Shown piece after piece: positions 56,051 to 61,670 of a stretch of DNA of 64,000 nt. This DNA is from Fistulifera solaris. Taxonomy: Eukaryota. A program made the translations under genes and the position numbers. The stretch spans positions 1,798,001-1,862,000 of the forward strand of contig AP026162.1 in NCBI GenBank assembly GCA_030295235.1, given 5' to 3'. The notes under the pieces are model-generated. The model was not told where the DNA came from, ran no database searches, and worked only from the letters and a program-made list of their open reading frames with translations. How positions within the stretch are numbered: the first letter of the stretch is position 1; the number at the start of each line of letters is the position of its first letter.

Positions 56051-57025
56051 ATGGTTGTTTTTACGTGCGATGGTTGTGGTGACATTTTGAAGAAAAATCA
56101 GGTGGACAATCACGCCAACCGATGTCGTCGATGCGATTCGGTCAGTTGTGTTGATTGTGCTGTTTCATTCTACGGAGGTAGGTTTTATTGCTAGTAGATG
56201 CGTTCGTTTTTCCAAGTGATGGAGACTTTGTTCGAGCTCGAATGGCATCTTTGCCGTGGGAGTTTCAAAATGTTTTAATTAAACTCTGATGGACAACCAG
56301 GCGGGTGGCGTTTGACTGATTACTTGAAAGATTTTTCTCAGGTCATTAATTTCTCTTTTGATTAGACGATTATCGAAAGCATACATCATGCTTAACAGAA
56401 GTCGAGCGGTACGAGAAAAGGACGCCTTCGTCCAAGCCAGCGAAAACCAATCCTCAGGATCAGTGGATGGAACTGATACGTGATTCGATTGCGACAGCAC
56501 CGGGGCATTTGAAGCATTACTTGGAAACCATGGCGGGCTTGGATAATGTTCCTCGCAAAGAAAAGCAATTTCGTAACTTTACCACAAACTCGCTGAATTT
56601 GAGTAAGAATAAGGGAGCAGAGAATATTGTTTCGGGAATTTGGAGCCATTTGAAAGGATTACGAGAGAAACAATTAGCCGAACGAGCTGAAGCACAGGCT
56701 AAGGTAAAGAAGGGCGAAGATTTAGTCGACACAAAAAGTGTTGAAGACGACCCGATAGAAGAGAAAGTGACATCGGACGATGGTAAAAGCAGCAAGGGGA
56801 AACTGGATGCGAAAACGGTCAAGAAAGCAATGAAAAAAGTGTTGAAGAAATCGAAAGATAGATCGATGACTGAAAAACGTCTTCGAAAAAGCCGTACAAG
56901 AGCACCTCGGGCTATCGAAAGATTCGAAATCAGATATCAAAGCACTTGTTAAGACCACTGTGGCTAGCTCGAAGGATGCTGTTTTTGAGGTGAACGGGAA
57001 AACCATCTCGTTGAAAGTAGATTGA
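56051..57025 (+). CDS. LYAR: LYAR-type C2HC zinc-finger nucleolar protein
   Basis: Exon 1 MVVFTCDGCGDILKKNQVDNHANRC..SCVDCAVSFYG, intron 56178-56365, exon 2 DDYRKHTSCLTEVERYE..NVPRKEKQFRNF. Confidence 0.92.
56211..56293 (+). ncRNA. Intronic box C/D snoRNA, predicted LSU rRNA 2'-O-methylation guide
   Basis: TCCA/TGGA terminal stem, box C GTGATGG 56216-56222, box D CTGA 56286-56289; guide TGTTTTAATTAAAC is complementary to conserved LSU GUUUAAUUAAAACA. Confidence 0.85.
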
Positions 57026-57251
57026 GTGGAGATAGATAACGGAATATCATGTAGATTATTGTAGTTTTCATAAGGGATACGGTGACAATCTGGTTCATTG
57101 TCTCTGAGAACCGACACTTTGGGTCCATGCCATAGTGCTAGCAATCATTGCAACAACAACTAATGGAGCTCAAGAGAAGTGGACGAACGAGCGAATGTAG
57201 GTAACATTGTCACTCGATTAAGAATACTAGCCGCCTGCGGGGAGCTTTTTA

Positions 57252-57966
57252 CGCGCTGCAGGCTGCATGTACAAACGGATTGCAAGGAGGTAGTCTCACG
57301 ACTGAAATCCAGTCGTGGATTCGTACAACCAACTGTTTGGATCATAGTAAAACGATGAAGGCCAGGATTCGAAGACAATGCCGGCTGAAATCGCAATTGC
57401 GCGAAATTCCAAGGTGAGAGCACAATTAGTTTTGGATCTATTGCTGTTATGAGACTATAATCAAACGCGAAAAAAGACAAAAAATTCGCGCTGCAGGCTG
57501 CATGTACAAAAGGATTGATGCAGTCACATGACTGAAATTCAGTCGTGGATTCGTACAACCAACTGTTTGGATCATAGTAAAAACATGAAGGTCAGGGCTC
57601 GAAGACATTGCCGGCTGAAATCGCAACTGTGCGAAATTCCAAGGTGAGAGCACAATTAGTTTTGGATCTATTGTTGTAATGAGACTATAATCAAACGCGA
57701 AAAAAGACAAAAAAATTCGAGCTGCATGCTGCACGTACAAAAGGATTGATGCAGTCACAAGACAGAAATCCAGTCGTGGATTCGTACAACCAACTGTTTG
57801 CATGATAGTAAAACATGATGGTCAGGACTCGAAGACATTGCCGGCTGAAATCGCAATTGCGCGAAATTCCAAGGTGAGCTCATAATTAGCTTTGGATCTC
57901 TTATTGTGGGGACTAATGAGACTATTAGCAAACGCGAAAAAGACAAAAAAATCGCGGCAGGCTGCA
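57252..57966. repeat. Tandem array, ~231-236 bp unit, 3 copies (same family as 15106-15643)
   Basis: CGCGCTGCAGGCTGCA variants at about 57252, 57487, 57718 and 57954. Confidence 0.93.
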
Positions 57967-58213: not shown

Positions 58214-59753
58214 ATGACTTCAGGAAAGGATCAGACTATTTTGCTGGAAAATAGCCGCTCCGTCGCATTCCGAGACTTACCCCCATCCCCAAAGGCGCGG
58301 ACGATGGGAATTATGGTACCATTCTCTTGATGTATCAATACGTCGAACCATCTTGGGGCAAAAAGGAACACAAAAAAGCTCTAAAGAAAATCATTGAATT
58401 AGGCCAGAAGCTGAATATCACGGGACGGGGTCGTGTAGCCCCGGAAGGAGTTAATTTTACATTGAGTGGAATGCCGAAGGATGTCCGCGCGTTCTGCACA
58501 GCTCTGCGAGAGTGGAATCCCTTATTCAATGAGACAGATTTCAAGTTAACTGACTGGTTACCCAAAGACAAGCTTTTTAAAAGTCTATCGATACGCAAAA
58601 CGGAAGAACTTGTCGCATACGGATTAGCGGGAGACGACAAGGCCCCTTCGCTTAAAAAATTTGCCGGCACCCATCTCGAAGCAGACGAATATCACAAGGC
58701 CATGACCGACAAGGATACAGTCATTGTAGATGTTCGGAATGCTTACGAATCAGCGATAGGAAGTTTTCGGCCACCCGAGGGTGGAGCGGAACTGATTGAC
58801 CCCAAAATGAGAAACTCGATCGAATTTCCCAAGTGGCTCAATGACCCAGCCACTCAAGAGAAACTCAATGGCAAGAAAGTCTTGATGTATTGCACCGGAG
58901 GGATTCGGTGTGAACGTGCGACCGCTTTACTGAATCAAATGTCAGCGGTCAATCCCAATCTCAAACCGAAAGAGTGTACCACATGCGTGGAGGGATTGAT
59001 CGATACGTGAAAACGTTTCCCGATGGTGGATTTTGGAAAGGCAAAAACTATTTGTTTGACAGAAGAATGGAACAGATTCCTGGGACAAAGAATCCGACGG
59101 ATGTGGAAGAGGAAGTTGATTCGAAATGTTGTTTGTGTCGACAGAAATGGGCCTCGTATCGTGGCAAGTTCAAGTGCTCGCAGTCTTTGTGTGGGGTTCC
59201 GGTCATTGTGTGCCCCAGTTGTGATGATCGAGCGTTGCGCGAACCGGAGCGCCTGACTTGCGAATTGTGTAAGGAAGGCTACAGGGTTCCAGAGGTTGAA
59301 CCGGATCTGGTTTCGTTGAAACGAAAAGCGGAATGTCTTGCAGAAGGTTTGACTGGAAATGACGCTGACGCTAAGACGAACAGCAGTCCTAGAAAGCGGA
59401 AAACAGAAGAAGTGTCAGAAAAAGGTTCAAGAAAATGCCATCCGGGCCGCTTGTTTCTTTCTAGGTTACCGTTGACCGTAACCAAGGCGAAAATCGAAGA
59501 GTCCCTAGAACTTGTCGCAAAAGTGAAACTTGTGCACTGGCTCACAGATCGTAACTCGGGTGCTTTTTACGGATCATGTCTAGTACAGCTTGAAACAACA
59601 GAAAATCAAGCCGAAGTTCTAAAAATGGCTGCGGAGATCGGAATAAAAATTGACAAGAAGAAGGTCAAAGTTTCTCCTGTGTGGATTCGAGAAGGAGATC
59701 AGTGGCCACCGATGGACTACGTTGATCGTCAATATCCACCTGTTGGACTTTGA
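58214..59753 (+). CDS. TSTD2/TrhO-like rhodanese protein with C-terminal RRM-like domain
   Basis: GRGRVAPEGVN, DVRNAYES.IG, MYCTGGIRCE, GGIDRY, WKGKNYLFDRR, Cys cluster, LFLSRLP..FYGSCLV; frameshifts near 58290 and 58972. Confidence 0.88.
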
Positions 59754-59804
59754 CAAGACCTATGGTGAGTATCGACTTGTCATTTGATACTTGTCTTATC
59801 GATT

Positions 59805-59948
59805 AGAATGATGATACTTGAGCTCCAGCTCACACTCCATTAAGCCGGAGGTGGCTGTGATTGACGAGGCGCTTGTGGGATGGTCGGAGTCAAATACTGT
59901 CCACACTTGCTATATTATTGCCTTTGACGACCAGCTCAATATCTGACT
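59805..59948 (+). ncRNA. Candidate structured box C/D RNA in a 3'-UTR intron
   Basis: Box C ATGATGA 59808-59814, box D CTGA 59943-59946, inner stem TTGAGCT/AGCTCAA, two hairpins; inside GTGAGT (59765) to TTTACAG (60016). Confidence 0.6.
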
Positions 59949-60244
59949 TTACCATTATCATCACGCAATGCGTTTTCCTCACATCGATATCTCACCTTGC
60001 AATTTTCGATTTACAGCTTGTATGCATAAAAGCGAACCTCGGCATTCGACGTTTCTTGTTGAGAAGCAAAGATTATCCAAAGGCACACCATGTAAAGCAC
60101 TCTAGAGTTATAATAAGAAATTTTTGTGTAAGGCTCGATACTGTGGGCTTCCCAACAGTTGATCAGACGCTTTATAGCAGTTTCGAAAGGTCAACGATTA
60201 ATATTTTACTTATTCTGTTCTCAAACAACGTGACAAGAGTATCG

Positions 60245-60954: not shown

Positions 60955-61424
60955 TAGCCGTGTTGATAGCCGTCGTAGGAAATTTATCTCTGCAGGGGGA
61001 CCCGGATAATTAACAATTCGCCATCAGCCATCATCCAATTCTTATGTTTACAGCTCACAGATATCACCATTTATCTTGCGCAATGTATCGTATTCGTATC
61101 GGGAAGCAATAAGCGCCATCGAGTTGAAAACAAAACGTTCATGGAACGATCGGTGCAACGCTTCGAATGTCTACGTAATTTCACGTAGCTCTCGTAGGGA
61201 AATTTATCGACAAAGGGGCAACCCGGATATTGCGTAATTCCGATCACACCATTAATCGCGTCTTTTGGACGCCAATGTCAACGATACCTTGTCCATCATC
61301 GCTAATGCATGTCATTAAGTAATAATCAACTTTGATTTATCGCTGAAACATGAAATAGTAAAAAGATAAAACGCTTCCAGTGTCTACGCTAATTTCACGT
61401 AGCCGTCGTAGGAAATTTATCTCT
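60955..61424. repeat. Degenerate tandem repeat, ~215-219 bp unit, just over 2 copies
   Basis: AGC..TCGTAGG(G)AAATTTATC at 60968, 61187 and 61401; ACGCTTC..TGTCTACG.TAATTTCACGT occurs twice. Confidence 0.75.
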
Positions 61425-61670
61425 TTACTTAGCTGGTAATTTCGATCATGGATCTTCAGGTGCCCCGACAATGTTTTTAATGTGTGTCTCTAAGATATGA
61501 TTTAGAGCCAGTAACAGGCATTATCAGCCTAGTTGCTTGAAAACGGAGGAAGGCGAGACACACACAGAGACATAAAGATCATAACATTATCTCGTGACTA
61601 AATACAAGTCATGGGTAGTTGATAGCACAATGATTTTAGAGCCCAAAATTTTATTAAAAACATTATTGTT

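Follow-up and report, generated by a model that had tools for sequence, protein, structure and literature searches.

Few box C/D RNAs that do not methylate have a defined target, and every one of them has brought to light a new task for the class: processing, chaperoning or acetylation. Those most similar in working to the RNA described here are snR4, snR45 and SNORD13/U13, which guide cytidine acetylation by Kre33/NAT10 (PMC5464676, PMC9670809, PMC7038934). Here, we describe a 139-nucleotide (nt) box C/D RNA in a 64,000-nt stretch of the Fistulifera solaris genome (contig AP026162.1, positions 1,798,001 to 1,862,000 of the forward strand; "the window"), inside an intron in the 3' untranslated region (UTR) of a TrhO/TSTD2-type gene. 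We take it to be a new, atypical family within the box C/D class, with a fold that we did not find described and a target that is probably 18S ribosomal RNA (rRNA): two hairpin tips would read a single uninterrupted strand at the P-site helix, the one bearing m1acp3-Psi1191. The finding pinpoints bases to mutate and an rRNA fragment to analyse, links the RNA to a eukaryotic TrhO/TSTD2-type gene, and makes the question of that gene's substrate testable in a transformable diatom.

Like snR4, snR45 and SNORD13, the diatom RNA has a C/D scaffold with stems just inside the boxes, no methylation guide, and two short antisense elements for a single 18S region, as in those RNAs with one in a loop. In the known RNAs the first guide lies at the 5' end before box C, whereas here both elements are internal apical loops; snR4 and snR45 loop out 9-11 nt with a CCG-type cytidine in helix 34 or 45 (PMC5464676), whereas here nothing is looped out and the helix is 30/31; and SNORD13 is transcribed on its own, whereas the diatom RNA is intronic. 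A second likeness is to the extra-pairing RNAs (snR70, snR87/U16), which have degenerate C'/D' boxes and a conserved D'-C' loop that pairs with rRNA beside a second site (PMC3116282). In those RNAs, however, a normal guide at D or D' reads the second site, whereas here a hairpin loop far from D' does so and no normal guide is present. U3, U14, U22 and U8 also use a C/D scaffold to pair with pre-rRNA without methylating it, or besides doing so (PMC7038934). Their targets and folds differ from those described here, as do those of snR190, reported to be a box C/D RNA of chaperone type (Jaafar and colleagues, 2021). We know of no chaperone-type C/D RNA that acts on helix 30/31 or that applies two apical loops to one continuous strand. 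The same 18S stretch is served by snR35, the guide for Psi1191, which belongs to a different class, H/ACA (PMC10068337). H/ACA guides leave the target uridine unpaired, whereas loop 2 of the diatom RNA would pair across U1191, and the two would compete for the strand. The H/ACA guides for Psi1181 and Psi1187 act on this stretch as well. The literature searched listed no box C/D RNA for 18S helix 30/31, which algal or plant small nucleolar RNA (snoRNA) catalogues or supplements could nevertheless hold, and no snoRNA in a TSTD2/TrhO gene; a Phaeodactylum small-RNA paper refers to snoRNAs in passing only (PMC4247016).

The conserved antisense elements of the predicted RNA are two hairpin loops that match 18S helix 30/31. 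Loop 1 (ATTAAGCC plus a closing G; 59839..59847, +) is antisense to positions 1158-1166 of the genome's own 18S (yeast 1177-1185). In loop 2 (CGGAGTCAAAT; 59885..59895, +), bases 59887-95 are antisense to own 18S 1165-1173 (yeast 1184-1192), a region that takes in Psi1191. Together the loops are complementary to one continuous 16-nt stretch, 1158-1173 (yeast 1177-1192), of the genome's own ribosomal DNA (rDNA). This stretch starts in helix 30, of which it takes the 5' strand, crosses the linker and runs into helix 31 as far as Psi1191, covering m1acp3-Psi1191; we equate own U1172 with yeast U1191 because the sequence around it, C-U-CAAC, is that of the Nep1 site in helix 31 (PMC3064781; for the yeast position, PMC8351944 and PMC10068337). 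The two predicted duplexes abut on the 18S, overlapping by 2 nt at a junction that reads AAUU, with no looped-out segment. We first spotted this match in the two copies of the RNA in the genome, before related loci were retrieved.

Across an alignment of 23 copies, described below, the loops are the best-conserved parts of the RNA, with column identities of 0.97 and 1.0 against 0.54-0.71 for the hairpin strands, and both are predicted to be unpaired in nearly all copies. Loop 1 reads TTAAGCCG in 21 of the 23 copies; loop 2 reads GAGTCAAA in 22, and the remaining copy has a G.U-compatible change. When the genome's own 18S, 5.8S, 28S, spacers, U2 and U6 were surveyed for 8-mers with a complement in at least 17 of the 23 copies, four overlapping words emerged, all at 18S 1158-1173. 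The 16-mer, allowing up to one mismatch, occurs at 13 rDNA places and nowhere else in the 51.7-Mb genome (control, 0), and when the two loops alone were shuffled 200,000 times, adjacent cover of at least 16 nt arose in 27 trials. From this complementarity and conservation, the loops very probably pair side by side with 18S 1158-1173. The earlier note on this DNA had called the target unknown and listed two short rRNA complements, CCAGCTCAC and TTATTGCCT, each of which turned out to be confined to one of the 23 copies. On the small nuclear RNA side, comparison with U2 and U6 gave no conserved complement of 7 nt or more (one 6-mer is shared with U6). Nor did the aligned region hold a conserved complement to helix 45 or 34; further upstream of box C the sequence is variable. 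A search for snR35-like H/ACA pockets was too noisy to read (88 matches against 39 in the control), and the one pair that we traced was coding sequence.

The related loci, 38 in all, are metagenome contigs found with an alignment of the host protein's C terminus. A covariance model gave 26 matches in 20 of them, two of which are cut by contig ends and 21 of which belonged to the model's own alignment. All 26 sit inside introns of the same host gene, either after the stop codon, at codon ~141 (in centric-like loci), or at both places, so that coding and UTR introns alike carry the RNA. Duplication within the host, as a second intron copy or in tandem, is seen in six loci (L028/29, L034, L037 and L038/39), L038 and L039 having two copies in tandem after the stop. 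The two-intron copies of L028, L034 and L037 are nearly identical, and the tree groups them locus by locus, pointing to gene conversion or a recent copying event. Judged by their closest named proteins, the loci are from diatoms of pennate-like and Cyclotella-like kinds, except L046, whose protein has 88% identity to one from a chrysophyte; this is an RNA family of diatoms and probably of other ochrophytes. Among the 18 loci with no match, L012, L018, L022, L033 and L049 stop before the stop codon or no more than 75 nt past it, L040 spans only the 3' part of a gene whose first intron carries the RNA in L031, and L013, L015, L016, L020, L021, L023, L026 and L030 would be spliced transcripts or short contigs. 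The model had no match in rDNA, and a two-loop pattern had none in prokaryotic genomes; its four matches in viral contigs lack boxes, stems and a model match, and we set them aside as chance. No Rfam family matched over the RNA, at gathering scores across the whole window or at E values up to 10 locally, or in six related loci.

The alignment used for structure holds 23 copies (L029 and L048, which are near-duplicates, and the two cut copies were left out), was not fitted to any structure and was folded with RNAalifold, which returned an inner stem P1, a hairpin P2 and a second arm P3/P4. Pairing is kept in 91.7% of 661 cells, 20 of the 29 pairs are altered on both sides, none of 500 shuffles was as good, and slid controls reached 32-52%. 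The terminal stem also covaries, with 85.5% of 69 cells paired and all three pairs altered on both sides. Folded alone, the window RNA is modest (z -1.77; 13 of 200 shuffles equal it). The earlier proposal of a structured box C/D RNA is borne out by a conserved predicted fold that, across the copies, exceeds chance.

The predicted architecture places a kink-turn at each end of the molecule's core. In the terminal stem, the 5' strand (59804..59806, +) makes 3 base pairs (bp) with 59947-59949, and a 3-nt bulge leads into box C, ATGATGA (59808..59814, +), which gives kink-turn geometry. Box D is CTGA (59943..59946, +), 70 nt before the 3' splice site, and reads CTGA in 20 of the 23 copies. The earlier note was right that box C is perfect in the window copy; only six of the 23 copies share this, while 21 fit RTGA[A/T/G]GA. 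Inner stem P1 (5' strand 59820..59824, +, paired with 59933-59937; 93.8% paired) extends to 7 bp in the window copy (59818-59824 with 59933-59939). Hairpin P2 (59826..59857, +), which carries loop 1, keeps its pairing while its strands vary (column identity 0.55-0.59), and six of its seven pairs are altered on both sides. A degenerate D' box, ACGA (59864..59867, +; ATGA, GTGA, ATAA, TTAA or TTGA in others), is followed by the 5' strand of P3 (59868..59872, +), whose GGC pairs with 59920-22 and whose GC pairs with 59909-10; the GGC/GCC helix is 100% paired, with all three pairs altered on both sides. Hairpin P4 (59873..59908, +), which contains the second arm of the earlier note (59875-59904), presents loop 2 between D' and C', and a one-sided bulge (59911..59919, +) with an invariant ATA at 59912-14 separates the two parts of P3. 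The C' box is the degenerate TTGACGA (59924..59930, +), with an invariant GA and a 3-nt bulge after P3, so that the internal D'/C' motif closes the second hairpin with stem, bulge and GA in the same kink-turn geometry as the terminal motif. Every sequence element that the earlier note listed is present where it placed it, but its reading of TGATTGA as the C' box fails, because that word is found in one of 23 copies. End boxes, a terminal stem with a kink-turn, an internal C'/D' pair and a workable distance to the splice site are all features of the box C/D class.

The intron itself (59765..60016, +) is 252 nt long with GT..AG ends. The host stop codon, TGA at 59751-59753, is followed by 11 nt and then by the donor GTGAGT from 59765, and the acceptor AG lies at 60015-60016. 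The branch-like CTCAC that had been pointed out occurs twice, at 59978-82 and 59991-95; only the latter (59991..59995, +) has a counterpart in the second genome copy, CTCAT, and is the likely branch site. That copy, on contig C2, is the only further one in the genome and its locus is fully syntenic; identity to the window copy is 93% over the RNA, 84% and 77% over the intron flanks and 62% over the next exon. We examined four sequencing runs as contigs, none of them on record as RNA, of which X2 and X3 look like RNA, to judge from a poly(A) end in X2 and from X3, where the LYAR intron too is joined at its GT..AG ends. One X3 contig tracks the C2 copy up to the position equivalent to 59757 and then consists of the last 7 bases of the C2 exon fused to the first bases past the C2 acceptor. 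The 3' UTR intron therefore exists and is spliced, as had been predicted, this single contig showing the junction of the second copy and not that of the window allele. Between 59761 and 60174, X2 and X3 have no cover and X1 has cover, which we did not use as evidence. In related loci the distance from box D to the acceptor is 71-109 nt in 14 of the 15 copies with a script-called acceptor, and 45 nt in one.

Both guide positions of the RNA are blocked or variable, and on these grounds it is non-canonical, as the earlier note had held. P1 occupies the stretch that a D guide would need, and neither the 14 nt preceding D nor those preceding D' have a target common to the 23 copies, their best targets being scattered. 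As a control, the LYAR-intron RNA in the same window does have a 14-nt perfect guide. A canonical 2'-O-methylation guide would have a conserved antisense element of 10-21 nt abutting D or D'; this RNA has none, and we reject that reading. The SNORD97/SCARNA97 type falls on the same ground, since with no conserved D or D' guide there is no D-adjacent element to elongator tRNA-Met. U13/snR4/snR45, the scaRNAs and SNORD97, which the earlier note had named, are analogies: the RNA does not qualify as a member of the U13/snR4/snR45 or SNORD97 types, and of the spliceosomal RNAs that scaRNAs serve, U2 and U6 were compared, with the outcome given above.

We propose that the RNA is a non-methylating clamp, chaperone or timer that holds 18S helix 30/31 open early in 40S assembly, a reading whose chances we put at about even. 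Splicing of the host pre-mRNA, seen for the second copy, would free the intron, and the intron RNA would be trimmed to about 140 nt and, judging from geometry and covariation, bind the C/D core proteins via its terminal and internal kink-turns. Its two hairpins would then present their short antisense loops side by side on 18S 1158-1173, and the clamp would keep this strand of helix 30/31 from closing in early pre-ribosomes until the RNA departs, ahead of helix 31 folding and Emg1 binding. We rank this reading first because the duplexes abut with no looped-out segment, because known guides of this type loop out 9-11 nt, and because loop 2 overlies the first three bases of the Nep1/Emg1 site, whose sequence is C/U-Psi-CAAC (PMC3064781). 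Since Emg1 binds and holds helix 31 in the 90S particle (PMC5354517) and loop 2 overlaps its site, the RNA would have to act earlier.

Several observations weigh against this proposal or against the pairing on which it is built. The chaperone role is deduced from geometry only, and a chaperone limited to one lineage is less usual than a modification guide so limited. When the whole window RNA is shuffled, 302 of 3000 trials reach the same two-part cover, which is not significant, and the case thus rests on conservation. The copies were initially chosen by a loop-2 word, and that choice itself accounts for part of the 100% seen in loop 2; loop 1 played no part in it, and the covariance model turned up no copy with other loops. 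The loop-1 variants of L019 and L024 each introduce one mismatch, compensatory change between RNA and rRNA is not visible because the target is invariant, and pairing with rRNA does not account for the invariant C59885, G59886 and ATA bulge. The 23 rows hold near-identical pairs and amount to roughly 13-14 lineages. Finally, the genomic loci L041/L044, L043 and L045 keep the host with no RNA in the retrieved flanks, where a rescan of three of these four loci with filters off again found none. These loci form long branches near Seminavis and Nitzschia proteins, and sequence comparison suggests, though no more strongly since the comparison with paralogues used the N-terminal frame of the C39 gene alone, that L041, L043 and L045 are true orthologues.

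The identity of the host gene bears on what else the RNA might do. Its coding sequence (58214..59753, +) encodes, by domain content, a TrhO/TSTD2-type protein with a predicted hydroxylase fold, comprising UPF0176_N, a rhodanese domain with the loop CTGGIRC, a Cys-rich Rhodanese_C segment and a C-terminal RRM. Pfam recovers UPF0176_N, Rhodanese and Rhodanese_C; UPF0176_N and a rhodanese fold with a CXGGXR loop, the marks of a TrhO-type fold, are both present; the NCBIfam TrhO equivalog scores 166.5 bits, below its cut-off of 170; and an alignment-based model (pLDDT 89.3) has the TrhO-tRNA complex 9j5o as its best predicted fold match, followed by RRM domains. The host type that had been assigned from the sequence at the outset is supported. 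Among named proteins, one from Fistulifera solaris has 90% identity to the host, which marks the source as a pennate diatom with two genome copies, and the CTGGIRC loop (C227-C233) is invariant in 49 sequences. In Escherichia coli TrhO, residues C200, T201, G203 and R205 of the loop are essential, and the authors see in the eukaryotic homologues a pointer to an unknown modification (PMC6599085). These homologues are widespread, with no known substrate (PMC6599085, PMC10135228), and human TSTD2 is described as uncharacterised (PMC10135228). The host shares UPF0176_N, the rhodanese fold and the CTGGIRC loop with bacterial TrhO (YceA) and human TSTD2 (PMC6599085, PMC10135228), and differs in its added Cys-rich segment and RRM, in falling just under the TrhO cut-off and in being one of about eight pairs of TrhO-like genes (15 UPF0176_N matches in the genome).

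One transcript might supply both a guide and its enzyme: the RNA would bring the host's TrhO-fold hydroxylase to the clamp, much as snR4 and snR45 bring Kre33, for 5-hydroxylation or a related base change of the uridine at the duplex junction, own U1166 (yeast U1185), or of a neighbour. Such an RNA-guided RNA hydroxylase, with two kissing loops and perhaps with tRNA-Thr(UGU) read by one of them, is in our estimate a possibility but a doubtful one. The host retains the loop that in E. coli TrhO contains the four essential residues, C, T, G and R; its top predicted fold match is TrhO bound to tRNA, and it has the added RRM. The RNA is also confined to this host: a two-loop pattern matched the genome only at the host's two copies (2 matches; control 2), and the other TrhO-like loci scanned gave no covariance-model match, no Rfam snoRNA in eight retrieved stretches and, with a crude pattern for introns, no C/D RNA that convinced us. 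This co-occurrence is partly built in, since we searched from the host outward; in three lineages the host is retained with no RNA nearby; and the recopying of the RNA within the host in six loci has to be set against the habit of snoRNAs, which often stay and duplicate in a host without serving it. Maximal pairing leaves no looped-out segment. If, however, C.U and G.A pairs close loop 2, each loop would pair over 7 nt with yeast U1185 unpaired between them, which would account for the invariant C59885 and G59886, and the loop-1 base opposite U1185 does vary. Against the chemistry, bacterial TrhO acts alone on folded tRNA, and the literature searched reported neither hydroxyuridine in eukaryotic rRNA nor a modification of U1185, U1242 or A1184. 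If true, this arrangement would extend the chemistries of box C/D RNAs, so far ribose methylation and cytidine acetylation, to a third, and would give a eukaryotic TrhO/TSTD2-type enzyme its first substrate.

That the RNA is instead an unusual 2'-O-methylation guide, with loop 1 as a displaced D' guide, loop 2 as "extra base-pairing" and the methyl group placed near A1183/A1184, we regard as unlikely. Fibrillarin is probably present, given that neither kink-turn has been lost, and loop 2 sits exactly between D' and C', where the known extra-pairing loops bind beside the target and boost methylation up to five-fold (PMC3116282). Yet loop 1 caps a covarying hairpin and is ~17-20 nt away from D', where the D+5 rule cannot apply, and the scatter of best targets for the 14 nt before D' speaks against it as well.

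Still less probable, to our minds, is that tRNA-Thr(UGU) is the target or a second target, with loop 2 pairing to positions 26-33, facing the wobble U34 and delivering the host hydroxylase. Loop 2 does complement these positions in both nuclear tRNA-Thr(UGU) genes, which have ATTTGACT immediately before the anticodon (duplex energy -9.0 kcal/mol); Thr4 is among the E. coli TrhO substrates (PMC10135228), and SNORD97 is a precedent for a box C/D RNA that guides modification of a tRNA wobble base (PMC7038934). This was, however, a post hoc find in one of 32 tRNA genes compared, most of them organellar; loop 1 has no site on this tRNA (3 bp at best), whereas the 18S site covers both loops and pairs better (-11.2). 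Searched in viral contigs, the tRNA-Thr motif had 27 matches, none called as that tRNA, which is uninformative on diatoms. The nuclear tRNA-Thr(UGU) (L131:1501-1572, on G000:C24; also L142) has the 8-mer AUUUGACU, placed directly before the wobble U, in common with 18S helix 31.

Lastly, a conserved pre-mRNA element that is never a free RNA, or an orphan snoRNA whose loops bind protein and match rRNA incidentally, would suit the non-significant single-sequence match and the unexplained invariant bases, but is very improbable in the face of two kink-turn motifs with covarying stems, a box D typically 70-110 nt from the acceptor, an RNA present in coding and UTR introns, and two conserved loops that fit one unique 16-mer.

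In the window the host reading frame is one base short in each of two homopolymer runs, 58279-58284 and 58969-58971, while the second genome copy has an intact frame of 512 amino acids. The gaps are probably assembly errors, because run contigs have the extra base at both sites (all of the X1 depth at 58968, half at 58279) and other retrieved genes show frame breaks of a like kind. Several database proteins end in RYV, TYS or SFR past the last conserved residues (C-terminal columns of the alignment), as expected if the annotated frame runs on into an unrecognised intron near the gene's end; a weak search for a longer, fused form of the RRM part found none. The TrhO-like pairs lie on contigs C1, C2, C3/C4, C7/C8, C21/C22, C34/C35 and C38/C39 (L054-L078), and those examined all keep C[TS]GG[IV]RC; for an enzyme that has no known substrate in eukaryotes, this is a large expansion. 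Alignment of the C38/C39 pair extends across host residues 26-499, and this pair may also have an RRM, and the pair at C3:2087836-2089312 and C4:2024426-2025905 (L072, L073) lies ~1.2 kb from a U6 small nuclear RNA gene on the opposite strand.

Elsewhere in the window, the LYAR intron (56178-56365, +), spliced in run X3, contains an ordinary box C/D RNA with no Rfam match at gathering score; its 14-nt perfect guide (56271-56284), one base before CTGA, matches the genome's own 28S at 2040-2053. Two degenerate tandem-repeat families, at ~57200-57960 (unit ~235 bp) and 60960-61430, both have very high depth in the DNA-like run X1. The 13 rDNA places are separate, spread over contigs C15, C16, C45 and C46 on both strands rather than gathered in a single tandem array.
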